Origin: Halocafeteria seosinensis
Lineage: Eukaryota
Assembly: GCA_001687465.1 (NCBI GenBank)
Contig: LVLI01000146.1
Location: forward strand, 124,001-179,389
DNA length: 55,389 nucleotides
Direction of reading: 5' to 3'
In this document: piece by piece, positions 5,368-55,389 of the stretch
Layout of the letters: the number at the start of each line of letters is the position of its first letter
Position numbering within the stretch: position 1 is the stretch's first letter
Translations under genes and position numbers: made by a program
Notes under the pieces: generated by a model
What the model saw: the letters and a program-made list of their open reading frames with translations, nothing else
Told to the model about the DNA's origin: nothing
The model's database searches: none

Positions 5368-7091
5368 TCACTTCTTCTTCTTCGCTTGCTTGGAAGCCTT
5401 GCTAGTAGTGTCGTTAGCACCGCGCTTTTGCCCTGGAGAAACCTTTGATGTGCTTGATGGCTTGGGAGCACCAAAGAAACTGTCCAGTCGGCGTTGTTGG
5501 GTTTTACCCTTTGCAGCTTTTAACTTGGCGATACCTGCAGCACCGTTAAGTCCTTACGAAGGGATCCAGCAGATAAAAAAGGGTACGACTTACCGGAATC
5601 AACACGTTGAGGGTTAAATCCATGTTTGTCTACGAGAAACTTTTTCAGCTCCTCTTCCTTCGGCTCTTCCCACTTAAGAAGCGGCCGTATTTCCTCTGAG
5701 TTCCTTACTTCATGTTCTTTGAATAACTTTCGTGCCGTTACATAGTCGAAGTTCTCGGGAATTCTGCGACGTAAGGACGAAAAGAATGCTTTAAGCGCAA
5801 ACAGCGAAAACAAAACAATGTGCTCTATAATGCTCACTGGTTTTTCTCCTTATCCAGAGTGGCCAATGCTCCCTCAAGGTTTCCATGCTTCTTGATAAGA
5901 TTTAGACTCGTCTTGGGACCGATTCCTGCAAAAAGCGAGGCGTAAGTTACTCCTTCAGACTTGCAGCGATCACATTGGGTGCGTACCTCTAATTGTTCCA
6001 CAGTAGTCACAGCCACAGAGGATACACATATCAATAAATTGATCCATCGTTAGTTCCAAGCCTTCCAACGCTTTCTTCAAGTCAATTTGAATTATCGGAA
6101 GCTTGCGCACTTCTGAAAATGCTAACCTTCGTACCTGTGCACGTAGTTCAATATTGTTCTCACCACAATATACAAAAATTTAGATCACGAAGTACGTACC
6201 AAAACAGGGGCCTCAAATGTTAAGGTATCTAAGTCTTCCGAACCAGCACCCCAGACAACTCCATCACGAGAGAGTGTAGCACACTGGGCTTCTGCTTCAC
6301 ATGGGGCTTCGACAATTGGCATACCCATTAGTTTCAGCAATTCCTTGCAGTCTTCTTGGTGAGCCTCCGTCATTTTCACAGTTCGTTTAGAGAAGCGTTC
6401 AATGTCTTCCTTATTCCCAGCTTCAGTAGCCTCTTTCAAATCGGTGGAAGCTTTTTCCTTTACTTCTTTTCTTCTTCCCAACTGAGAGCAAAATGTACTT
6501 CGATTAATTGACGCTGGCATAGCTAGTTCCACGTAGTAGTATTTCACCTACCTCTACAGACTTCAGTTCTGGTGGCTTTCCATCGAAGACGTAGACGGGT
6601 TTAATACCATTTTCCATCAGACGGATCGTCCTATTGAAGAGACCTTGCAGATGGCTGAAACACGTAGCAAAGGCTGTTGATACTTCGGGCGCGTCAGGGT
6701 TCACGACGCGGTTCTGCATACCTCGTAACCTCTCCTGATTCGTTGGTCAACATGGCAGCAGGAGCACCTCCTTCAGAGCTTCGCACAGCAACCTGTAGTC
6801 ATCATACACAAAAGGTAACTTTATTAAGAGTGTCCACCTTACTCGGGTAAGCATATATGGCTGATATCCTTACCAAAAACTGGTAAATGGCGCCAGACGC
6901 ATCCAGTGCAATCGTCCTGTATTAACGCAAGATATAGTCAATCCAGCACCGTCAGCACTTCAAGAGGGAAATATACGACTTTTACAGTCCGAATCATCCA
7001 CGTACCGACCCATTAAACTCTTTAAATCGACCTCTTTGACTGCGTTAGGCGCATTTTCGTAGAGGAGACGACTTAGGTTTTTAATCCCCAT
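5368..7091 (-). CDS. FEN1: Flap endonuclease 1, multi-exon
   Basis: [10 protein letters not shown] start, [67 protein letters not shown] and C-terminal PIP box QRRLDSFF. Confidence 0.96.
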
Positions 7092-10088: not shown

Positions 10089-13000
10089 ATGAGCAAGCCG
10101 AATACGAATCCATTCACACAGCAGTCAGCGCCGCAGGCGCAGCCATCGTCTACAACCCAGAACACGGATACAGGAGCGCCGAGTAGCGTGAAAAGTCCCG
10201 GGAGGAATCCATTTGCTCAACAGCAGCAACAGCCTCCGGAAGACACAGATGCGGCAGGTGCTTTTCCATCATCCGCTGCTGCGATAGGTACCCCTAACAG
10301 TGCAATGGACAGCTCAAAAAAAGGAATGAACCCATTTGCGTCTCCTCCACAGCCACAAACGGGCGCAAATAGACCGCCACCAGAACCTGCGGGAGCTGGG
10401 ACGAGCCCTCACAGGGTATCTTGGCAGCAATCTCCCGTGACGGGCACCTCAAGTGAGGCAGTGCCGGTTGTAGGACACCAAGTCACTTCCTTCTCCAGTG
10501 GGACCGGAAGAGAGGGTGCAGCTGAAGAAGACATGAGTTACGAGCCACTCTCGCAGAACGCGGAGGCAACGGGAGGAACCAACAATGGCATTGGCGAGGA
10601 AACCCCAAGGGCAACGAACCCATTTGCAACCTCTGCGGTCAGTCCGCCACATCCTACGAAGGATACTACACAACCTCCAGGGTACATACAATGGAAGCAG
10701 CGACAACAACAAAGTGATGAGAGGGCACCGGAGCCTCTTCCCGCTAACGCTGTAGTCGGCTCTAGAGGAGTTGTCATGGAAGAGGAAAAGACCTACTACT
10801 TCAAGCCGAATGCAAAGCAAAATGAGGGGAATGTTGCTCAGATGCGATTTTGGAGGCCATCACTTGAGTCTCTCGCTTTTTCTAAGATTAGTGGGCCAGC
10901 TACGGTGACCACTAATCCGGCACTGTTTCAACACAACACGATGGAGAGAGTGGGTCTCGGAAGGGTATTGAGTTTGAACGGGAAGCCCAAGGAGGTATTT
11001 TTGAAACTGAGAGGTGCCCAGATTACCGCTACCGCCAATCACCGCGATCCAACACCGCTATTTCATATCCCCTTGAATCCCACAACTCGGGTTTTCGCCA
11101 GTACACGGAGGTTTGGTAGCCCCCCTACCAATGACATTATAAGTGCACTTTATCGAGCGCTACCAAGAACTGCAGTGTCTTGGGAAGAGGACGGATCGGG
11201 CCACTTTTTTGAGCCAATCCAACGCCCTCCCAGCGGAAGTAAGTTACCATTGGTCCTGGAACTATGGACCGATAATCCCATTTCAGGCCGGAATAATCCC
11301 AGGAGCAAGACGAAACTAATGGCATTTCTGCAATTCTCCGGGATTCTTCAGTACTTTCAATGGGCAGATGCGATTGACAATGTTATTCATATTCTCAGAG
11401 GGAACTTCTCGCTACCTATGGCTCCAGCAGCTCCACCCCTGACGCGGGTGCTGCCAACTGTGTACGATACTCGTAGTATAAGGGCGTCATTGTACAGAAC
11501 CGGGAGGATATACTTGACCCAACTAGAAGATTCGCAGGCTGGCGTTCCACTGACATCTCGCATGTCGTTGACGAGCAACTCTGCCACTATAGTCTGGAAT
11601 CATCCCTCACCTGAGAGGAGTGCAGAGCGCATCACTGAGTTCATAATGCAGGTTTTCTTGGAAGATAAGCTGTTTAAGACGTTACGAATGCCCTTCTTCC
11701 AGATGCAGTCCGTAACTTCATCTGATCTCCATGAAATGCCCACTGAATCTGGCTGCATATGTCTGGATTACGCGACGGATACGGTAGCACGCTTTGCCGA
11801 GCAATCGACTGGTGGTGTCCATCGATGTCAACCTGCGGATCAACATGCACCTTTGTCACATTTACTCTGCGCCAATGTGCATGGTCTCGAATCAAACTCG
11901 ATCTACAACTTTCGAATTCTATCTGTTAATCGATTTGGCTACAGTTCTAATGGCTTGGGCTCATCTCCCCTGGCATGTTGTAGAACGATGAAACCCATTT
12001 CCTCCGTAACTTGTACAGCAGAAAATGTGATATCCCATTCCTCGGCTTTTGTCTTACGATGGACCGTGGAGACGGAGAGTGAAGAGGCTAATATTGATTA
12101 CATTGGTGGTAACGATCTTACGTCTCAGGAGAAGGAGCTATATAGTCCCTTTACCCGGCTTTTGCACAGTATTGGTGATAAATCCACTCCTCCTGATGGC
12201 TTCACCGTGGAGGTAACCCTCGCGGACTCTGAGCAGTTGGCAGAATGGATCGAGTCAGATTCGTTACCGCTTCTGGACTGGAAGCGTTTCATACATATTC
12301 CCATAGGCGTTGCTTGCCGGACAAAGGCTTGTTTGGACTCATACGGGCCTTGTGATAACTTTGTAATGCAACACGAGGAATTTCGAGAACTCAACAGCTT
12401 AGTCCGTGGGATGCGTGCATCCACCGACCAAAATGAGATGGGAGAAACAGATCACAGTGTGAGTTTTGGCGGGCTTGTAGATGGACTAGCGCCGGCGTCA
12501 CCGTATGTGGTTAGGCTATGTACCCATTCACAAGGCAATTTTTCCCCTTTTAGCGAAGAGTTCGGTCCATTTTGGACTCTAGGACCACCATCGAAGCCAC
12601 CTCCCGTCGTTACAGAGGTAAAAGAGGAGGTTTCAGCTTCTAGTGTAAGCGTCGAAGTTCACCCACCAGAGTTAGGGGAACTGGATGCGCCTCTCGAAGG
12701 GATGGAGATATATCTTGTTCAAGCTAATTCTGCGCGAGAGATTCGCAAGATAATGACGTCCGAAAATTGTACCGAGATGTTCGATCGGGTTATAAAGCAG
12801 CGGTTTGAGGATATTTTTGGCTCTGAGAGTGCAGAAACTGTCAATGTTGGGAGACTTCAGGTACACCCCAACATCAGAAATAGTTTTGCAGTAAAATTCA
12901 TTGGGCTAGCTTCGGATTCGCCATACTATGTAGTGAGCCGGGCATTCAACGCTGTAGCTATTGGTCCGTTTACGCGGCATCCCACTCAAGTTCATACCCT

Positions 13001-16000
13001 TGGTCCTCCCACGGTAAGTAAATCGAAGAAGTATATAGTCGCATCTATTCTTAAATTATCCGGTTTTGTTTTTCTTACCAGGTTCCTCCTGAACCTCCAT
13101 TTCCCGCCAGAGATCTTTCCGGCTACTCTGAAATACCATACGCAACGTCCTTCTGGAAAGACTGCGAAAGCTTTGGTAATGCTGTTCCTCAGGATGGTTT
13201 TGACTTCGTTTTGAACACTGCGGGACAACATTTTTCCAAGGGAGTGGGGATAGACTGTGTATGGATTGATTGGAAAGAGGCGGAGCATGGAAACCACGAT
13301 GCCCCTATTGGTGGGTATGAAGTCGGATGGCTTCACGTGACGAATGACAGTACTCTACCTGATGATGCAAGCGGTTGTCAAACTGTCACTTGTACCGGTG
13401 GTTCAAAAGAGACTCGTATGTGTGTTCAGGGTATCAAACCAGCGTCCAAGGTTTCGTTTTGCGTACGCGCATGGAACGAAGTAGGGTTTGGTCCGTATAG
13501 CGACTTCTCGGAACCTGTGCAGCTGTTGCTGCCCCCGAAAATTGTACCCTCCTTACCAGTTTTTTGCGAAAAACGAGCTGCTGAGGCGAGCGACCTTATT
13601 GCTGGGTTTCAAGCTCTTTCTACCCTTGCTCAAGACAAGCTATTGGATGTGGTCTCGATCTTCGACACCTCTAGACTGGAGTTGTACAATGGCACAGGAT
13701 CGCATTCCCTGAAGCTTGTCGCGGACATTGCTTCTTGGGAGAAGGCTGGTGTCGATGAAGCACCATATGAAGCCGTGGCAATAGAGTATGGGGGTGGCAC
13801 GGAAGTTACTGACACGGAGGCTGCTGACGCCGACGCTCTGCAGGGAAGACTCTTCATTTCGCTTGAGTCTTTGCTTTATACTGATGGTGAAGTTAGTATA
13901 ACGCAACTAGACCCTGGAGCAGCTTACGTTTTCTCTCAGCGATATTTCAGTGGAGCTGGTGTTGGCGAACGCAGTAGCTTTACATCTAAAATTCGAACTC
14001 TTGGAGCACCTGAGACCTTTTGTCCAAGTCCGGCTCCAGTAAAGGCTTCAGGAACCGCAATAGATGTGTGTATAGCTTCAGCGAATGATTCCCGTTTTCT
14101 TAGGTGCGGATCAGCGGATGCCCCTTATGAGGGGTTTGAGATCGAATATGAAGGGACTCCCCTCGACGATAGTGATGGGTCCTCCACCCCAGACAGAATT
14201 CATACTGGTTCTTGTAGCCTCTGGCTATCCTCTGTTTCTGTAGTAAATTCTATCGAAGAGATGGACGGGACGAAGTCGCTGTCTTCCACTGAGCACAATA
14301 GCGTGTGCGGCTTCTTGGTTGACGGAAGTCTGTATATTAGAATTCCTGGCTTACGCTCCCTTTATCGATATACTTCCCGGATTCGTCTATTTAATAATTT
14401 CGGAAACTCCACATGGAGCGGCTGGTCGGAGCGGAATCGCCTTTCTACTACGCTAGGTCCTCCTCGAAACCCGCCATCGGGCATTAAAGTGGAAGGCATC
14501 ACTCTAACCCAAGATGCCAGCATTAGTGTAGTGCCAGCAGAATTTGCGTTTGTTACTCTATACCCTCCAGTCTTAGGTGAATTTGAGGGGGCCATCGAGG
14601 GTGTTGCAATACGCCTCGTGGAAGTATCAACGAATAGTGGGGAGAATCTGAGTGAGTCGCTCAGCGGTTCCATCCCCGGAGAAGGCAGAAGCGAGAACGA
14701 AATCATGGAGCTGATCAGGGCTGTAGAAAGTGACCAAGCTAATAGAATAAGGAGCCTAAAGATCCCTCTATCGCGAGTGAGGGTGCTAGAGTCCGGTGCA
14801 TATCAGGTCACGGTGCCAGATTTGGAACCGGGCTCTTGGTATTTTGTTCAGGCTTCTGCGTCAAACAAACTGGGCAACTCGCCGTTGAGTGCGTTAGAAC
14901 CGGGAAGTTTATTCTTTGCAAGAGGCGTGCCTGTCAGCGTACATCTACCACCAGTTCTGTGTGAACGGAGTGCCAGAAGTTTAGTCATAGAGCACGGCAA
15001 AAGTGATCAACAAGATATAGTGGATGTTGTAAGAGAGTATCTCCAAAATTGCGATGGCACGCAGAAGACGGAATTACTCAATAGTGGTTGTCCAACACAT
15101 GCAGTCTTTGATTGCTTTCGAAAGAGCTCTAAACGAGCTGTCATATGCTCGGAGGAAGCGGAATTGGCAGTTCCTGGAGATGAGCTAGTGGACGGCATAG
15201 GTAAAGTGCTCAAAGACGCGGCTCCTGAAACTGAGCCGGCATATTTGCCCTTTGTGGCGACCGCAGTAGCTCGGTTATTCTGCTATGCGAAGGTCCGAGT
15301 TCGAAATTTAATACCAGGAAATACCTATATAGTTGAGCAGCGATTTCAGAATGATACAGGCTCTAGCCTATCAAGCGCAGAATCGCTGGAGGCAACAACT
15401 GTTGCAGAACCCCTGGGCCCTCCTGAGACGGAGGACCTGGTCACTGAGGTAGAATCTAGTGAAGGCGTATACATGGCAGAAACTGTTGAATCGTTGGATG
15501 AGCCGGATGAACAGTTTTTGCTCCCACCAGAGCCCAGCTTCAATATGGAAGCTGATACCAGTAGTGTGGAACACGTTGGCTTATACCACTCCATAAATTT
15601 GAGTAACGTCGTAAAGTATCAAGATAGGTGCGTAGTCTCTGTCAGAATAGGTCTAGTTTCGGAAGCTGTGGAGAATGAGGAAGATGAGGAAGATGAAGAA
15701 GATGGTGGCGATGAGGCCAACGTATCATGGTTTATCACATGGCTGCTAGGCATGCAATACTATATTGATGCCAACTCTCCCGCCGCCCAACTTTCTCTCC
15801 CTTTTCAAGACATTCTAGAGGCCATACCTGTGCGATCTCAGATCGATGAGTTCCGGCAACTGGTTAATGACCCGGCAAACTCCAGATGGATGAACGAAAA
15901 CAGCGAGGTGTCTGGCTTTAGTCGGATGGACTTGAGGTTCCTAATCTCACTGTCGGTTGCAACGGATGCTTCGTCTTCTCAATGGAGCTATGATTTTGAT

Positions 16001-22242: not shown

Positions 22243-25179
22243 ATGACTATGTCAATGCGCGATTTGATACGCTCGGTCCGAGCGTGCAAGACGGCCAATG
22301 AAGAGCGAGCCACCATTTCCAAAGAGCTGGCCTATATACGGACCATGGTGAAAAACGAGGACCAGCGATACCGTGAGCGTAACATGAATAAATTATTATA
22401 TATGCATATGATGGGATATTCCACGGATTTCGCTCAAATGGAATGTGTTAGACTGATTGCAAGCTCCAATTTTGCTGAGAAAAGAACGGGGTATCTGGTA
22501 CGTGCACCTTGGTTGAGCACTATTATGCACGTACCTCACATGTATTATTATTGTTGGACAACTGTCATGCAGGCTATGATGATTTTGCTGGATGAAGAAT
22601 CGGAAGTCCTGAGATTGGCTACGAATTCAATCCAACAGTACGTGAATATTGCCCATTTCCTGAATGCCATTGTGGAGTGGCTGACTTTGTTTGATACAGA
22701 GATTTGAACTCCCGATATCAATACGTCGTGGCATTGGCATTGACGACATTATCAAATATTGGCAGCACTGATATGCTACGGGATTTAGCCAAAGATATAG
22801 ACAAACTACTGAAGTCCCAGAACCACTACGCCCGCAAAAAAGCTGCCATTTGTGCCATTCGGCTCTTCCAAAAGTGCCCAGATATGATGAATGACTACGT
22901 TACACGCGTTATATCACTGATGACGGATAGGAATCATTGGTACGTTGTGTGTTTGCCATAGTTGTTTGTCCGAAGTGTAATAGCCCCATTTGACCGCAGC
23001 GTGCTGCTTTCTGGTATCACATTGATGGGAGACATGATCAAATTAAAGCCTAATCTGAGTAAGAAGTTCGCGAAATTGGTACCAGCTCTTTCGAAAATTC
23101 TAAAGAAGCTTATTAGCGTGACTAACTCACCGGACTATTCTATTGGGAACATTACCGACCCTTTCCTTCAAGTGGGTAGCAACTCCGGCTGGAGCTGAAC
23201 AGAACCTCGATTATGGGTGATGTTCTCTTTTATTCTGGTTTACAGGCAAAGATCCTCAGGTTGATGTGTTACATTGGAGAAAGGGAACCGTCCACGCTGG
23301 AAAACTTGAACGACTCTCTGGCTAATGCTGCTACCAACACGGATTCATCCAAATCAACCGGACATGCAGTATTATACGAATGCGTTAGAACCATCGTCTC
23401 TGTGGACTGCGAAAGTGGCTTAAGGACCCTAGCTGTCAATTTACTAGGAAGATTTCTGGTCCGTAAAGACAATAATGTCCGTTATGTTGCCTTGTCGACG
23501 TTGCGAAGAATAGTAGACTATGACGATGAAACCGTGAAAAGACATCGGAGTACAATCGTCGATTGTTTGCGGGATCCGGACGTTTCAATTCGCAGACGAG
23601 CACTGGAACTTGTCGTCGCACTAGTAGACGACGAAAACGTGAAGAGCCTTACCGGTGAAATGTTGAACTATTTAATTGTGTGTGATAAGAATAGCGCTGC
23701 TGAATTGTGCCTGAAAATTGCTACTACTGCTCGAAAATTTGCACCATCATTAAGGTGGGAAATCGAGGTTCTGATGACTGTCTACTCGGTATCAGGTAAC
23801 TACTGCAAGAGGGAGATTTTTGCTCGGTTAATTTATCTTATAGGGAAAGCTGAAGAAAAGGATCATCGTGGAATCGTCCACAAGATGTTCACGAAGGCTA
23901 TCGAGGACCTCGATCTTCCTGAAATACAAGTAAGTCATGCTCTATATTTTGGCCTTGATCTAGATACTGTGTGCATCCCGGGTCGCAGATTGACTTCATC
24001 CACGCCGCCATCTGGTGTATTGGCGAATATGGTGAATTGCTCCTTGAAGATCCTCCAGAAGAATCACCCGAAGAGGTCGATGTTGCTGGGAATCGTGGCT
24101 CCAAGCAGACAGAGAATGATATTGTTGGACTAATCTTACGCGTCTTGAGGCATCATGAAGCCACGACCACGACGAAAGCTATGAGTCTCTCGGCGTTGAT
24201 GAAACTCATGGCTAGATTCAATGACCCGGAAGTCCTGACCGAAATTAAGCGAACTATTAAGGGTTTCCGAAACTCTCTCGATATGGAATTGCAACAAAGA
24301 GCTGTGGAATACGATGTCCTGGCGTCCGAAATGAGCAATGCAAGTGATCTCAGGAGAAAACTGCTGGCTAGAATGCCTGCGATGGCCGAGGACACGTTGA
24401 TGAAACGAAGTGGACTGACTACTACAGATATCAATGAGGCCGCCAATGCTCTGGACGCCAGTGGCTCCGAGCAGCAAATGGATATTTCTCGAGGCACCGG
24501 TGGACAAAGTGTGACCCAGAACGGTTCAGCTGCCTCTGCTCAAGATAGCAGCGAGGTTAACACGCCAGAAGATGATTCCCTAATTGATATATTTGGTCCA
24601 TCCGTAAGTACTGGTGCGAGCAGTAGCGGCGCCGCTGCCGTCGCAAGCGTGGGTATTGACGACCTTGGAGACCTCTTCGGCACTTCCAATGAAAACGGGT
24701 CGGCTCCGAATCGGCAGATTCAGACAGCAGTTTATCCACAGGGCAACGGTGGTAACATCGGTGGTGCTCAACAAGGTGAACCGCATACGCAGGGTCAAGG
24801 GAATAAGAGATTACCGAGTATTGTGGCACATGAAGATTCTCGACGGGGCGTAAAGATCATCTTTGATTTGGCCAAGCCTTACGGCGAGAATAACGAAGTG
24901 ACAGATATCCGTGCCAGAGCTTCATGTTCCTCGTCGCATCCGCTGGAAAACTTTAAAATGCTTGCTGCAGTACCGAAGTCTATGAAAGTGGTCATGAAGG
25001 CTGCTTCGGGAGAGCGACTGGAAGCTAACGGCACCAATGAAATTACGCAGAGAATGCGAGCAAACAACCCTCAATATCAATCCAAGCCTCTCGCTATGAA
25101 GCTGAAAGTATCTTTTACTCAAAATGGAGAGAATCACGAAGAAGTCGTCACTGTATCAAATTTTCCCGAAGGGACCTAA
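22243..25179 (+). CDS. AP1G1: AP-1 complex gamma adaptin, multi-exon
   Basis: MRDLIRSVRACKTANEER...KLLYMHMMGY...AVLYECVRTI...LAVNLLGRFL...NNVRYVAL...DPDVSIRRRALEL...ELQQRAVEY, hinge region and gamma-ear (AAVPKSMKV). Confidence 0.95.
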
Positions 25180-36190: not shown

Positions 36191-36254
36191 AATCCAACCG
36201 TGTGCACACACACACAAATGTGACAGATAGCCCACCGGCCGGGGAATCCAACCG
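36191..36254 (-). mobile_element. 44-bp insertion (36201-36244) flanked by the 10-bp direct repeat AATCCAACCG; (TG)n-tailed on the minus strand
   Basis: Direct repeats at 36191-36200 and 36245-36254. The insert shares 32/33 bp with 49126-49158 in inverted orientation. Confidence 0.7.
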
Positions 36255-48782: not shown

Positions 48783-49060
48783 TCAATCGATTCTCTTTCG
48801 GCAGTTTACATGCAAGATTCCATTTTCGTGTTGACCTTTTAGATAGGAAAAATTTTCTGAAATGTTGAACCCCGCAACCGAAATTCCCGAAATGTGGATT
48901 TGCCGTTGAAAAGTTCCAGAAATAGTGATTTTCACACGATAATCTTTTCTCCGAGAACGAGCGGATTTAATTCCACAAATACATGTATGGATTTTGCCCT
49001 GGTCCCAAAGGAATTGCGTACTGCCAGGTGTGGACTTCCAGAAGTAAACTAAAAATACGG
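48783..49060 (-). pseudogene. Possible HSP20/alpha-crystallin-like fragment
   Basis: SGTFQRQIHI...LKGQHENGILHVNCRK resembles the small-HSP C-terminal consensus (G.F.R...L...A...NGVL.I...K); no clean start found. Confidence 0.35.
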
Positions 49061-49116
49061 TATTCAAAAAATAAACCTTACGCACTTATTCAGACTCGAT
49101 GTACATTGGAAACAGC

Positions 49117-49168
49117 TATAGTAGGCGGTGGGCTATCTGTCACATATGTGTGTGTGTGTATAGTAGGC
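49117..49168 (+). mobile_element. 32-bp (TG)n-tailed insertion (49127-49158) flanked by the 10-bp direct repeat TATAGTAGGC
   Basis: Direct repeats at 49117-49126 and 49159-49168; near-identical to the 36205-36237 sequence. Confidence 0.7.
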
Positions 49169-49219
49169 CGCAGTAAACTTATCACCTACGAGTCATGCCC
49201 GTTCTACCTCGTCAATCGC

Positions 49220-51669
49220 TCAGAATATGTTATATCCAGTTTCTCCGTAATTCCTGCAGATGATTGTACCTTTCGTTTTTCTCTTTCCCCAAGGCCCAAG
49301 GTGTCTATCTCCTGCAAATGGACGCCCTCTACTGGCAGGAGCCGATACCGGCAGTCGAAGGTTGGCACAACAATTCCACTCCCTTGAGCAACGCTGAGCC
49401 ATCATACAACTGCTTCACCTCAGCCAAACTTATTTCGTCGAGAGATTTATTCTCGGTGAACTGCGATTGCCATTTGTCAACGTGTTATAAGTCATGCTTG
49501 AACAGCTTGTATCTGGGGATTCGTTCATGGTTAGACATCACGAAGCCATGAATGCATGGACGCGAGCGTGTTAAAGGAACGCCACAATCACATGTCATCA
49601 ATTCTTTGTTCACAGTCCTCTTGGTATGCAAATCGTGGACGATCAATGTATTCTCGTTTGGGTCCGCTTCTATATCCAATTGCCGCGTCGCTTCGTTTGC
49701 CTGTTTACCCAGATCACGGGTGATTTTCCGGCTAGCCTCCGAGAGCTTGTACTCAGCCCTTTTGTGAGACGCGATCAAGTTTTGCTGCTTACGGTATTTT
49801 CTCGCTTCTCCGGCTATGGCTTTCTGAAGAGCGTGATAAAAGTGTGAACCTCGGCTGGGTTTGTTGGCCCTATTCATACTCTCCACTAATTGCGAAGCAA
49901 AACGGCCAAACAGATGCACAGGAGTATTAGCACTGGTGTATCTAGTCACTAGTCACAGCAGCATACAAACATTGCTCTGTGTACGGAACTTTGTCGAGGT
50001 GTTCTTTCTGTGTGGGACTGAGTCACTCAAGTAATGCATCCGACAAGGTTGAGTAGCTGTGAGAATTCTTCGCGAAGACCGTCGACGCCCACTTGTCCTT
50101 CTTTCTTTTCTTTAGCTTGCGCAGGATGTGCACCGCCCGATGCGAAACACAATTGAAAAATCCCAGACTCGTGAATCTTTCACGATGCGCTTTGCGAGCG
50201 CCCTTATCTCCATCCATGAAGACAGTGTTCTCCTTCGTGTCCATACCAGGGTGATGCTTCCGCGTAAACTCGAAAAACCTGTCCCATGTTGCTGCGCTTT
50301 CATTGTCAATCGAAAACATTAGGGCTACTAGCACTGCCTGGTCATTCGATGAATATCCGTAACACGAAAACATCGTTCCAGGTTTCCCTGAGGATTAGCA
50401 TGCCATGAAGTCGGTCATAAAGGCTGAATGAAATCATAAGCTACTCCTACTTACCACGCGTCATATGAGCGGCGTCAGCACTATAAATCGGTAGCAGGGC
50501 CTCCACATTTGTAGTTCCCGGAGCCCACATTACGGATTCTACGAATTTGTCATCCTCTGTCATGGGAGGTATTCGGTCTAGAATCTTCTGCCGGCGCTCT
50601 TCCCATGTGTCTAAGTTTTCCTTCTCCTCTGCAGTTGCGTTTTTATTCTCCCGTTTCCACGCCGCTCTCTCGTTCTTGATAATAATGGCTTCCATTTTTG
50701 TTTTCCACAGAACGAGATATCAGATCCGTGTCCTATATCTTTCAGAGCTTTCACCAATGCCGGAAGCATACGTATAGTTCGCTCTTCACTTCCACAAACC
50801 ATACGGAAAGCCTCCGTTCTGACGCGATTCAATTTAGAAGGGCCTACCTTCTGACCTTTGTGGAGATAGAGAGCTAAGTGCTGCTGAAAGACCTTTCCTT
50901 TTGGTAATGCCGCCGCGGGGTCAACCAGGGCGGTGCAGGCATGGGCCAATTGCTTGTACGTGTAGTTTATGGTCTTCATTCCTTTTCTCTTTCTCGAAGC
51001 TGCTTCGGTTGTACATTCCTCTTCTGTTGCATCGGCTGTGTCGTGAAGAAGACTCTCGTGAACCTTTACATTGCTTACACGCCATGGTCTGCTCGTTCCG
51101 TCCATCCTATACGTAGCTCCAAGAAAGAGTTTTGGATCTTCCGTATTTTCCTCGTTCTTTAACTTAATTGCGATCGCACTGGGTCCACTGTCAGTCGCCA
51201 CAGTTTATAATTGCAGCACGTGAGCGAGCTTGGTGAAGCGGAGAAGTACATCAGCCTTTCGCTGAAAACGATCACCGCGTTTGACGATGCCGTCAGTTCC
51301 CTGGTCCATCAGCAGCTGCAGTTCGGCTAAAGTCCTCAGTCGGACCGTTGGGATATCATTGCCCTCAATTCTTTCCTGTCCCATCGCATCTCGAGCGGCG
51401 GTTCTCATCAACTCCCCTTTGGACCCCGTAGTATCTGTGGTTGTAGCCTGCCCCGGGCCGTCTTCTTCACTTTCTGTGCCAGGCTCGTCGCTTTCAAAAT
51501 CACTGAGACCACTTTCGGATGTGGTAGAGCTTTCGCTATCATCCGGCGAAGTACGAATTCCTCTCCCGTGCTCACATCCAATTGCAGTACCCTGTGTCTG
51601 CTCCTCCGGCGTCGTACCATCACATGCATGTGCCTGTGATGTAGACCAGAAATGCCGCGGCTGAAACAA
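49220..51669 (-). mobile_element. Decayed Mutator-like (MULE) transposase pseudogene; element ends not found
   Basis: DDE-type motifs SADAAH, FMDGDKG, CVSH and VESMN; SWIM finger CDCGVPLTRSRPCIH; degenerate knuckle CRNYGETGYN. In-frame TAA at 51205-51207 and 49485-49487, frameshifts near 50700 and 49350. Confidence 0.85.
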
Positions 51670-52174
51670 CCCTTTGTGGTCACATTATGATTGTCGCACA
51701 TACCGTTGGTTCCTAAGGTTGCACTGTACCAGCGCGCGTAGTTGCGGGCCTACCGCGTTCCATTCTCGTCGTTGTGGTACAGCCAGATGTCATGTTCATG
51801 TGTGTACTGTCCTTAGGAGCATGGTTTGTCGTTTTGGTGTTCTCTGATGTGCGTTTTGGTGTCTTCGTCGTCTGCGAAAGCTTGGTGGTCTGTGAAAGCG
51901 CTACACGCTTGTTTCCACTGCTACAACTATGATTAGCCTTCCTTTTGTGAAAACTCGTCCGGCCATCTTGGCCAGAAAGTCTGGTACTTCCTCTCATGGT
52001 TGTCTGCACACTGAGGATATACAAAACACCCTAATAAAGACAGTCTAGAGTACGACGCCTTTGGCCCCGAATTTGAATGTACTGAGTAGTAGAATAATTG
52101 TTTGTGCGATAAAATCCATATTTCTGGAATTAAATTGAGTACATTGTGAAATCACTATATGTGAACTTTATATT

Positions 52175-54388
52175 TCAAAAATCAACATTTCTGGAATAAA
52201 GAGTTATATCTTTGGTTGTTTCATCTTTTAATTCATCATCCATATCTGCGTTGTAAAAATAATTACCATAACCATTTTCATTTAAAAACTCTTCTATTCT
52301 TTTTAATTCTGTTTTACTTGTAGAATGCACTAATATATTTCTCCCGTTTTGTAAATCTTCTACTAGTTTTTTCATTATTTTATTTCTTGATAGAAAAAGT
52401 GTTGCATTTCTTTCTTTCGGTTTTATTATATTTTCTGTTATTTTAATTTTCATTGTTGCTCTTCTTTTCTTCTCTTTAATGTCTTCATCATCATCTACAT
52501 TTTTCCTTATTCTTTCTCTCTCTTTCTTAATATCTAATAACAAATCTTTTGTTCTATTACTTAAGAAGGCATCATTTCCTACTATTTTATTTGAGTTTTT
52601 CATTATCTTCATAAAATTGTTTTTTATATCGCGCTTAAAATTTCTTATTGTTTCACTTGAAAATGTATTTTCAATGGTCTCTGCTTCATCTATCACTACT
52701 AAATCAAATTTCCTATAATTTTGTATCTTATATAAGCTTTCTAGTGATATTATTAGTCTATTTACCTTATTAAAATCTTCTACATCTTGATAACTTACGA
52801 ATTTTTCTCCTGTAATTTTATTATTTATTTCTTCTAATTTATTATTACAATAAATTATTCTTGGTGAAAACCATATAATGCGTTTATAATTCTTTTCTTT
52901 TATTAGATTTGTTAATACTGTTGTTTTTCCTGTTCCCATTGGGGATTTTATTATATGTATATCGTGATTTTTGATATCATACTCTTTTACATATTGCTCA
53001 TTATATGTTTCATAATCTATGTAGTGTTTCTCATCTTCTTCCACTTTAATATCAAAACTATTATTTATTACTTCATTTTTATTTACTCTTAATTCTAATC
53101 CTAAAATGTTTTCTGTTTTATCCTGTATATTCTCCACTATCCCATTATATATTTCTTCATTTGCCGTATGTATTCTTTCTATTACATAGTTTAATGTTAA
53201 TATCCTCTTTTTTGTTATCTTCTCATTGAATTTGTTTATTATTTCTTCCTCGTTTTCTTCATTCTTTATTTCTTCTTTTAATTCTTTAACCTCCTTTATC
53301 GCATTTTCTATTGTTTGGTTTTGTTTTCTAAAATTATTTTCTACAAAATAATAGCCATTATTTTTGTATTTATTACATCTTCTCATTATCTTATGGGTTA
53401 TATCCTTTATTTTTTCATCTCCTAATGTTCCTAAACTAAATATCGTCTTTATTGCTTTTGTAAAATCACATATTTCATTTTGTTTTTTATCTTTATCTTT
53501 ACATCTTGTTTTACATTCTAGTTGGTTATTATTACAATGGGGTAGTATATCTAATAACTTTTGGAAGTAGTTTAACTCCTTTTCTTGTATGTTTTTTATG
53601 TTTTTCCTTATTTTGTCTATCTCCTCTATTTTTTTTATAAAGCTATTTACTTTCTCTATATTATCCTCATTTACTACTTCAACATCATTGTTATATTCTC
53701 CTTCATTCGTTATTTTTTCTACGTTTTCTCTTTCCTTAAATCCTTGTATTATATAATCTACTATTTCATCGCTTATTTCTATTGGTTCTGTTCTATTTAT
53801 AATTTTGTATTTATTGTATCTAAACTCTTTTTTTTCTCCATTAATATAATCCTTAACTCTGTAATTACTACATCCTGGACCTACTAAATAGGTTTCTTTT
53901 CCTTCTTCTGTTCCTTGTTTTATATCTAAAAATCCTCCATATAATTTATTTGTTTCGGCTGTTTTTCTTCCTATTTTTTCTAATTCTTCTTCTAAATATT
54001 CGCTTACTTTAAAATAATAGTGATATCCATTACTAGCTGTTTTTACTTTTAACGTGTTAATATCATCTTTAAAATTTTCATTAAAGTTATTAAACTGCTT
54101 TTCATTATCTTCCTCATATAACTTATCAAAATCTAAAACTACGTATTTATCCCTTCTTACTGCTACCCCGTAGTTATAATTTCCTTTCTTTAATATTTCT
54201 AATGTTTTTTCTGTTAATTGTTCTTTCTCTTCTTTTGTTACTGTTAAACCATTCCATCCTGCCATATTTTTATATGGTGTTAATTGTTCTTCAGTTAATG
54301 GTATTTTTTGTCCTTCATTCAATGGTAGTAAATTAAAAAACTTACTCATAAATTTTGCTTCTTCGTATTTTCTATTTTGTTCAGACAT
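52175..54388 (-). CDS. Bifunctional primase-polymerase (Prim-Pol) fused to an SF2 helicase of the origin-binding-protein (UL9-like) type; probably C-terminally truncated
   Basis: N-terminus NYGVAVRRDKYVVLDFD...VKTASNGYHYYF...LDIK...YLVGPG. C-terminus IIKSPMGTGKT (Walker A), WFSPRII, LIISLESLYKI, LVVIDEAE (Walker B), GNDAFL. Confidence 0.8.
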   Translation of the reverse strand: MSEQNRKYEEAKFMSKFFNLLPLNEGQKIPLTEEQLTPYKNMAGWNGLTVTKEEKEQLTEKTLEILKKGNYNYGVAVRRDKYVVLDFDKLYEEDNEKQFNNFNENFKDDINTLKVKTASNGYHYYFKVSEYLEEELEKIGRKTAETNKLYGGFLDIKQGTEEGKETYLVGPGCSNYRVKDYINGEKKEFRYNKYKIINRTEPIEISDEIVDYIIQGFKERENVEKITNEGEYNNDVEVVNEDNIEKVNSFIKKIEEIDKIRKNIKNIQEKELNYFQKLLDILPHCNNNQLECKTRCKDKDKKQNEICDFTKAIKTIFSLGTLGDEKIKDITHKIMRRCNKYKNNGYYFVENNFRKQNQTIENAIKEVKELKEEIKNEENEEEIINKFNEKITKKRILTLNYVIERIHTANEEIYNGIVENIQDKTENILGLELRVNKNEVINNSFDIKVEEDEKHYIDYETYNEQYVKEYDIKNHDIHIIKSPMGTGKTTVLTNLIKEKNYKRIIWFSPRIIYCNNKLEEINNKITGEKFVSYQDVEDFNKVNRLIISLESLYKIQNYRKFDLVVIDEAETIENTFSSETIRNFKRDIKNNFMKIMKNSNKIVGNDAFLSNRTKDLLLDIKKERERIRKNVDDDEDIKEKKRRATMKIKITENIIKPKERNATLFLSRNKIMKKLVEDLQNGRNILVHSTSKTELKRIEEFLNENGYGNYFYNADMDDELKDETTKDITLYSRNVDF

Positions 54389-54395
54389 CTTAATT

Positions 54396-54482
54396 CTATA
54401 CTATATATTTCTATAATATTTTTATTTCTTTAAACCCATTACAATAATTCTATATAATTTTTAGGGGTCCAAATTTCACATT
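54396..54482 (-). promoter_or_regulatory. 87-bp upstream cassette, copy 1 (7 bp before the Prim-Pol/helicase ATG)
   Basis: Ungapped match to 55303-55389; first 69 bp differ at 2 positions plus one N. Confidence 0.7.
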
Positions 54483-54531
54483 ATCCCCTAAAATATGTTG
54501 AAACTGGTTCCTTTCCATAAAACTATATTTA

Positions 54532-54563
54532 TTAATTATTAATTAATGAAAATTAATAATTAA
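54532..54563 (-). terminator. Perfect 13-bp AT-only hairpin with 6-nt loop directly after the stop codon of ORF 54564-55298
   Basis: TTAATTATTAATT-AATGAA-AATTAATAATTAA. Confidence 0.55.
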
Positions 54564-55298
54564 CTACTTCTTTATTTTATTTTGTAGTGTTTTACCTACG
54601 TTATAGAATGTTTTTATCTTTATGTTTCTCATATCTCCATAACGATAACTAAATGTTGTTTCATCTTGTTTATCTAGATATTTTGATAAAGTATTATATA
54701 TCATTTTATAATTTTTTTTATGAATTTCTTGTAATGCTTCTANAAATTGTTCNTTTATGTCTTTATTTTTTCCTTTTAACTCTACAAAGGCTTCATTAAA
54801 TCTTTCTTTTGATTTTTGCATTATGTGCTTAATTTCATAACCATTGTTTGTTATATCCTCATTTGTCTCTTCTATATCTGTTCTACTATACTTTTTCTTC
54901 CTTAACTCTTTATCCATATTTTTTATTTTCTCATTTATATCATCAATTTTTTTTCTATCTTGTGTGTCTAGTTTGTATCTTAATATATATCTTTTAGGGT
55001 TATTGTTTGTTTCTATGTTTTTCAGTTTGTTATATAATTTATTAACGTTTTTATAACATTCTAAATGTCGTGTTTCGCATTTAATGCCCTTCTTTTTTAG
55101 TGCTTCATTATATATTTTTTGTTTTTGTTTTTCCTTTCTTATTCTAAATTTCTTTTCTTTTCTTTCATATTTTTCGTATTTTGCTTTTTGTTTTACCAAT
55201 TTTAATATAGTTTTGTTTGTTTCTTCAAAGAATTTTTCAATATTATCTATTTCCATTTTTAATATTTCTATTTGTTCTGTTTCTGTTAAATTTCCCAT
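54564..55298 (-). CDS. 244-aa Lys/Glu-rich, coiled-coil-like ORF of the AT-rich element, unknown function
   Basis: Intact ORF in very AT-rich DNA, preceded by the conserved cassette and followed by a hairpin. Confidence 0.7.
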   Translation of the reverse strand: MGNLTETEQIEILKMEIDNIEKFFEETNKTILKLVKQKAKYEKYERKEKKFRIRKEKQKQKIYNEALKKKGIKCETRHLECYKNVNKLYNKLKNIETNNNPKRYILRYKLDTQDRKKIDDINEKIKNMDKELRKKKYSRTDIEETNEDITNNGYEIKHIMQKSKERFNEAFVELKGKNKDIXEQFXEALQEIHKKNYKMIYNTLSKYLDKQDETTFSYRYGDMRNIKIKTFYNVGKTLQNKIKK

Positions 55299-55302
55299 TT
55301 TC

Positions 55303-55389
55303 CTATACTATATATTTCTATATTATTTTTATTTCTTTAAACCCATTANAATATTTCTATATAATTTTTAGAGACTTGAATTTCACATT
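55303..55389 (-). promoter_or_regulatory. 87-bp upstream cassette, copy 2 (4 bp before the ATG at 55298; may extend past the window end)
   Basis: Ungapped match to 54396-54482. Confidence 0.7.

Follow-up and report, generated by a model that had tools for sequence, protein, structure and literature searches.

A repeated hairpin and probable promoter module in a putative virophage- or Polinton-like virus fragment of Halocafeteria seosinensis, a candidate site for the gain of orphan genes

In a 55,389-nucleotide stretch of the Halocafeteria seosinensis genome (assembly GCA_001687465.1, contig LVLI01000146.1, positions 124,001 to 179,389; hereafter the window), a long, near-identical repeat stands directly upstream of two unrelated genes of an AT-rich, virus-like fragment (Table 1). 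We consider it reasonably likely that this repeat is a two-part module, a hairpin plus a promoter of about 52 bp, belonging to an integrated virophage- or Polinton-like virus (PLV) fragment, and that it loads orphan genes by recombination. In such a model, the hairpin would end the upstream transcript as a polyadenylation or termination signal, and the promoter would drive several unrelated genes, likely of the replication class, its core and TATA-rich block being read by the transcription factors of a helper giant virus (or of the host) at the replication stage. An incoming promoter–ORF piece would cross over with a resident promoter to give the order promoter–ORF–promoter–primase, and ORF244 would have arrived ahead of the primase–helicase gene by such recombination between module copies. 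The strongest new results come from relatives of this element, not from the window. Virophages and PLVs swap accessory and replication genes, and no mechanism for this swapping was described in the literature searched; promoter-bounded insertion, if true, would provide one, and would allow a new gene to be expressed at once.

Table 1. Features of the viral fragment and its surroundings, in window positions
Feature	Position	Strand	Remarks
Decayed Mutator-like (MULE) host transposon	48845..52202	-	MULE domain; left limit approximate
AT-rich virus-like fragment	52203..55389	.	23.5% GC, inside a 42-53% GC eukaryote contig
Prim-Pol primase fused to UL9-like SF2 helicase, 737 aa	52175..54388	-	domain and homologue matches
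Repeat copy 1	54396..54482	-	3' end 7 nt upstream of primase-helicase ATG at 54388
Proximal promoter-like module, ~52 bp	54396..54447	-	copy 2 equivalent 55303-55354; also without distal half in run X1
Mimivirus/Sputnik late-promoter match, one mismatch	54397..54421	-	copy 2: 55304-55328; pattern from PMC6510173
TTTAAAGA core	54427..54434	-	-46 from ATG; copy 2: 55334-55341, -43
Distal palindromic module	54458..54508	-	begins 55 nt past ORF244 stop; also without promoter in run X1
Orphan ORF244, 244 aa, Lys/Glu-rich	54564..55298	-	bracketed by both repeat copies
Repeat copy 2	55303..55389	-	ends 4 nt upstream of ORF244 ATG at 55298; truncated by window end

The two copies align without gaps, as an earlier sequence-only reading of this DNA had reported, and are identical at 78 of 87 positions, with one of the nine mismatches being an N. 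The next-best 87-nt match within the whole window reaches only 44/87, and the best pair in 200 shuffles of the AT-rich region had a mean of 53.3 and a maximum of 59. The placement of the copies 4–7 nt ahead of two ATGs, noted in the same reading, is confirmed; further, the similarity stops at that distance and the ORFs are unrelated, which argues against a recent local duplication. The size given to the cassette is not confirmed. Copy 2 stops at the last base of the window, and 87 bp is therefore a limit of the data rather than a natural repeat boundary; in addition, the two halves of the repeat occur apart in run X1. Rfam returned no match for the repeat, and exact cassette patterns had no matches in the viral contigs and metagenome contigs searched. 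A terminal inverted repeat of the element was considered and dropped, since both copies are direct and internal, as was kinship between the AATGTGAAATT block and the MULE end, which agree at just 9/11 positions. The window's only three Ns (54743, 54753, and 55349, the last inside copy 2) all lie in the viral fragment, and may reflect collapsed, slightly different copies.

The viral fragment is cut on both sides, and neither of its two ORFs is a capsid or other structural gene. It is embedded in a host contig with kinesin, adaptin, homeodomain, and proteasome genes, and is bordered by a MULE whose domain match (E 8e-6) falls just under the Pfam cut-off. The MULE adjoins the broken viral gene on the right and host DNA on the left; this junction of viral with host transposon sequence suggests that the element is integrated. 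The MULE is multi-copy in all three runs (X1, X2, and X3), with a loose end behind 52202 in X3; in X2 and X3, which share an organism code, the MULE is present and the viral fragment is uncovered, a gap in the data. Inspection by eye showed no target-site duplication; two MULE copies may therefore have been joined by a rearrangement or a misjoin, and the host DNA beyond the MULE may reflect one or the other.

The 737-aa protein of the fragment combines Prim-Pol and Herpes_ori_bp domains. Its nearest homologue, to which it is 55% identical, is a 1162-aa metagenomic protein (P0001) encoded on a 4.8-kb contig; the similarity ends at about 52205, where the transposon end begins. The UL9-like helicase matches the origin-binding protein (OBP) of HSV-1 with E 1.5e-40 over chain positions 86–418, the helicase part only. 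The origin-binding domain of that protein (536–851) has no sequence match in the primase–helicase, and an RVKNL-like motif was found in only 1 of 122 homologues. In a helicase tree (FastTree), the window protein groups with P0001 and P0002 in a separate branch, placed weakly (86) beside a PLV clade. None of the 79 related IMG/VR loci exceeds about 32% identity; virophage- or PLV-type neighbours, Sputnik-type capsids among them, occur in 48 (17 with a capsid, 11 with a protease or ATPase, 13 with a PLV-type ATPase, and seven with one shared cluster only). The primase–UL9-like helicase gene is common in virophages and PLVs. ORF244 returned no Pfam, homologue, or Atlas match (residues 1–181 for the Atlas), and close protein relatives of the element were absent from the viral contigs and metagenome contigs searched.

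The public run X1 contains the fragment and may itself be where the window's sequence came from. Twenty-five of its contigs were aligned to 54310–54610, 12 of them fitting partially. Among the matches listed, two contigs contain 54393–54447 alone and two contain 54458–54508 alone, and one contig inserts 15 + 2 bases between the halves. The repeat is therefore better described as two loosely combining modules of variable spacing than as the single long, element-specific module with fixed spacing that the sequence-only reading proposed; moreover, its core is common to many virophages, PLVs, and giant-virus contigs. That reading also saw a freely varying 7-nt spacer of constant length. The spacer does vary, with six of seven bases differing, and in copy 1 this block shares bases with the hairpin's right arm; a fixed 7-nt spacer was considered and dropped. 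At least four distinct downstream flanks follow the proximal module in X1, two of which are the window's ORFs, and a separate X1 contig bears the copy-2 flank. In the other two flanks listed, reading by eye places an ATG at 1 and 4 nt from the module's end, one of these flanks being a mixed, 0.77-agreement consensus of three contigs. Copies elsewhere, among the matches listed and with two starts read by eye, thus also stand before ATGs. It may be sister elements, and not the one in the window, that carry the extra flanks. Contig depth in X1 (260–308 for the promoter, 99–183 for the hairpin, and 14–82 for the flanks) gives no copy number and is uncounted as evidence.

Several lines of evidence bear on the promoter role that had been proposed for the repeat: its position, the further copies before ATGs, a late-motif match, and a test of a bipartite motif, and together they make it very probable that the proximal module is a promoter. 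The Mimivirus/Sputnik late pattern, as it appears in the available part of its description ([AT]8 T[AC]T N4 [AT]5 [AG]TA[TG]A; PMC6510173), fits the last 25 nt of the module with one mismatch in each copy, a fit reached by 6.0% and 3.7% of shuffles. This pattern is loose, matching 210 of 439 other genes in small-virus loci and two places inside the fragment's own coding DNA. The Mimiviridae early promoter, AAAATTGA, with which the repeat had been compared, is absent from the 91 nt upstream of both ORFs, and the late-type pattern fits instead. TCTA, the late motif of CroV and mavirus, does not occur within 60 nt of either ATG, with one instance at -74 in copy 2.

The combination TTTAAAGA-N8-24-AGTATA occurs in the window at the two copies only (expected 0.01). 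A scan of IMG/VR for TTTAAAGAAAT-N6-20-TATAGTATA recovered 65 stretches, representing 50 distinct matches, and an ORF starts no more than 25 nt after the motif in 31 of these 50, as compared to 2/50 on the opposite side and 123/5200 (2.4%) at random places. Twenty-three of the 31 proteins were scanned, 12 without a Pfam match and 11 with one: seven replication enzymes (D5-type primases, protein-primed PolB, SF1 and SF3 helicases), three DUF5871 proteins, and one cold-shock protein. AAAATTGA lies directly before the core in 6 of the 30 bipartite matches listed. Fusions of AAAATTGA to TTTAAAGA were observed ahead of DUF5871, polymerase, and helicase genes (L089, L129, L098, L118, L124, L130), and look like a compound early-plus-second-stage promoter.

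The core is distributed unevenly among genes. In primase-centred loci, from which 11 near-duplicates had been removed beforehand, it stands at -50 to -27 in 12/36 primase genes (and is missing from the other 24), in 0/65 capsid, protease, or ATPase genes, and in 22/336 others; in separately fetched, capsid-centred virophages, the counts are 9/11 for replication genes, 0/44 for capsids, and 37/538 for others. We infer that TTTAAAGA may be a replication-class promoter element. According to a 2017 review, no promoter of an intermediate class has been described for mimiviruses (PMC5294985); given this, and since the core splits replication from capsid genes, the core is a candidate to test. A related arrangement was seen at L018:8845-8944, where a small ORF diverges from the primase gene and the 100 nt separating them form a near-palindrome, composed of two TTTAAAGA promoters placed back to back.

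In several relatives, promoter duplication accompanies an additional gene. Of 37 related small-virus loci, four have a primase promoter that is duplicated over 67–106 nt, reaching the ATG. In all four the second copy stands before the orphan ORF immediately upstream of the primase gene, which is the layout of the window; the primase promoter is unduplicated in the other 33. One close pair of virophages, L071 and L078 (84–89% identical), provides the empty and filled states. Positions 6217–6367 of L071 align twice to L078 (8206–8837), flanking a 133-aa orphan that is missing from the complete L071 record, and the empty gene order is also found in L065, L030, and L034. Across 84 loci, long shared upstream regions were found in 17 of 673 adjacent same-strand gene pairs (four of the 17 being tandem paralogues) versus 12 of 6160 other pairs, a 13-fold difference; in a pair in L010, a hairpin and TTTAAAGA promoter are shared over 104 nt ahead of unrelated genes. 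The duplicated-promoter pattern is the footprint that would be expected if a promoter–ORF piece crossed over with a resident promoter. For the window's element, the viral and metagenome contigs searched contained neither an empty site nor a circle nor a close relative, so the mobility of ORF244 is argued by analogy with viruses whose helicases are less than 30% identical. By this analogy, we lean slightly toward a gain of ORF244 by promoter-bounded insertion. The suggestion that the repeat acts as a recombination unit for gene shuffling is thus borne out in relatives (L071/L078 and the 4/37 loci), and is inferred for the element in the window.

The distal module contains the inverted repeat that the sequence-only reading had placed at 54459–54467 and 54485–54493. 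The resulting hairpin (54459–54493) has a 9-bp stem and begins 70 nt past the ORF244 stop codon; it folds with a z of -2.49, and 2 of 200 shuffles fold at least as stably. A second, imperfect inverted repeat lies in the same module, with the conserved AATGTGAAATT block as its right arm, and this alternative fold reaches -8.5 kcal/mol as RNA, versus -13.8 kcal/mol. In relatives, hairpins occur in 21 of 43 convergent gaps, 44 of 186 tandem ones, and 9 of 60 divergent ones, where shuffles give 2.4, 5.8, and 1.6, respectively. Their bias to convergent gaps is as expected for 3'-end signals, such as those published for Sputnik and transpovirons (PMC6723459, PMC7031253), and the nine divergent gaps with hairpins are places where nothing needs termination. 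We give even chances to the hairpin being mainly a terminator. A separate observation concerns UL9-type virophages (L001, L002, L010, L018, L029, L044, L049, L060, L062, L066, L071, L077, and others), in which a palindrome particular to each is repeated in 2–6 copies per locus, with G/C arms and an AT-rich spacer; such families are rare with other replication genes.

Several known systems resemble parts of this arrangement. T4-type phages shuffle ORFans by means of PeSL (promoter-early stem-loop) cassettes (PMC2839356, PMC4122927), which, like the repeat described here, are composite, intergenic, repeated combinations of stem-loop and promoter, often ahead of ORFans or at a replication gene. 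The window likewise has a repeated intergenic promoter and stem-loop directly before a start codon, with the halves also found apart, and the indels between close relatives that are bounded by PeSL repeats have a counterpart in L071/L078. However, the fragment is of a eukaryotic virus, with an NCLDV-type late motif and a TTTAAAGA core in place of the sigma-70 boxes and Shine-Dalgarno sequence of PeSLs, so it is an analogue of the PeSL and not a member. The copies are also fewer, two to perhaps seven, as compared to about 50; and while promoter, terminator, and mini-circle functions have been demonstrated for PeSLs, those of the module in the window are putative.

Closer in lineage are the late promoters and hairpin polyadenylation signals of virophages and transpovirons (PMC6510173, PMC6723459, PMC7031253, PMC11998528). 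The one-mismatch late pattern just before the ATG and the hairpin 55–105 nt after the upstream stop codon agree with that grammar, and the position of the hairpin, whose stem is 9 bp, would fit a signal of the Mimivirus polyadenylation type. The differences are that the published motifs are short and degenerate, whereas the blocks in the window are long and near-identical; that the late motif is preceded, further upstream, by an additional TTTAAAGA core; and that the fragment is without a capsid gene. Mavirus and EMALEs, with TCTA, and PgVV, with its AAAATTGA early promoter, are likewise AT-rich endogenous elements in GC-richer eukaryote genomes with one motif ahead of several genes, which in PgVV include its own replication gene (PMC8547959, 10.1101/2022.07.28.501842); they differ from the window in the very motifs, AAAATTGA and TCTA, that are absent upstream of its ORFs. 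The late promoter and hairpin of the virophage grammar are, on the evidence of these partial sources, already known. The long repeat, the TTTAAAGA core, and the empty/filled evidence were not found in the text of the literature searched, with the qualification that motif logos in figures may already show the core; nor did that search find anything on virophage repeats, origins, or duplicated-promoter insertion.

It is possible to read the repeat more plainly, as a shared promoter with no role in gene gain or loss, present before co-regulated genes among which selection or gene conversion maintains the likeness of the copies. The variety of X1 flanks behind the proximal module, with and without the hairpin, agrees with this explanation, as do the 12 non-adjacent gene pairs with long shared upstream regions in relatives and the per-gene promoter-and-hairpin grammar known for Sputnik, mavirus, and transpovirons. 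But 87 or more bp at 90% identity far exceed the 25–38 nt that the motifs need, and three features of the relatives, namely the 13-fold enrichment of sharing in adjacent pairs, the orphan directly upstream in every case of a duplicated primase promoter, and the L078 duplication surrounding an insert missing from L071, are set against a promoter without such a role, which we regard as unlikely. That copy 2 occupies the window's last bases and that the window's Ns are restricted to the viral fragment might point instead to a repeat independent of gene starts: a recently duplicated local segment, a small selfish repeat, or an artefact of assembly where the contig ends. Such an origin is very improbable, and is largely refuted by the X1 contigs, one of which separately bears the copy-2 flank, and by the IMG/VR scan, in which the bipartite motif precedes ORFs; the abrupt end of similarity before each ATG, the unrelated ORFs, and the lack of an Rfam match also speak against it.

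A different alternative concerns the distal palindrome, which could be mainly a dispersed origin or binding site for the element's own UL9-like primase–helicase, in the style of herpes oriS or baculovirus hrs, and not a terminator. Such an origin role is compatible with a proximal half that acts as promoter and cassette. HSV-1 oriS comprises a pair of inverted boxes with an AT-rich spacer between them (PMC12543377), and relatives of the fragment share with that system both the UL9-family SF2 helicase and conserved inverted arms around AT-rich spacers. Palindrome families, counted at a stem threshold of 11 in loci that are partial, were found in 14/21 UL9-type virophage loci, 4/13 UL9-type PLV or other small loci, and 1/21 virophage loci without this helicase. 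A capsid-centred control gave 3/9 versus 3/47 (p 0.046, weak, with 26 of the non-UL9 rows representing one clade), and 0/8 for loci with another replication gene. On a quick capsid tree, from which five duplicate rows were left out, the eight rows with both UL9 and a family are scattered, implying eight changes, at least five of them forced. Further, hairpins follow the primase stop codon in 15 of 32 cases, versus 55 of 388 for other genes. Against an origin stand the OBP match, which covers the helicase and not the origin-binding domain, and the near absence of the RVKNL-like motif; the limits of the controlled test; the favouring of gene 3' ends by hairpins; and the palindrome in the window itself, whose 9-bp stem is shorter than the 11 counted and whose visible arm differs between copies. 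The primase fusion and the several dispersed palindromes also set these elements apart from the herpes system. We consider a primarily origin-like role improbable.

Returning to the two-part module that loads orphan genes, a broader version may be envisaged, in which virophages and PLVs have their own PeSL-like system: a replication-stage TTTAAAGA promoter, possibly the missing intermediate class of the Mimiviridae, would be the crossover site at which orphans are loaded before the primase–helicase, and genome-specific palindromes would be dispersed origins for the UL9-like helicase. We offer this wider synthesis tentatively, as a doubtful possibility.

Other shared or repeated regions were observed among the relatives and in the host contig. 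Three extra ORFs are present in L009:15890-18315 relative to L005:15086-15124, two of them methyltransferases that share a 60-nt upstream region. Tandem, similar, capsid-sized genes with a common upstream region of 53–61 nt occur at L210:4083-7934, L214:897-4418, and L220:5486-9304, the first gene of the tandem being the major capsid match. Mirrored ORFs with identical upstream regions in L055:1-2600 and 13000-15586 (a 15.6-kb record) represent terminal inverted repeats over 2.5 kb. In the host part of the window, a 33-nt stretch present at 49126–49158 and, in the opposite orientation, at 36205–36237 shows many different flanks and a very high total of contig depth in the three runs, and is the end of a high-copy host repeat. 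Finally, part of the host AP-1 gamma adaptin (23971–25179) is 27–35% identical to named proteins, and its best match, at 62%, is unnamed; these identities suggest a poorly sampled eukaryote lineage.
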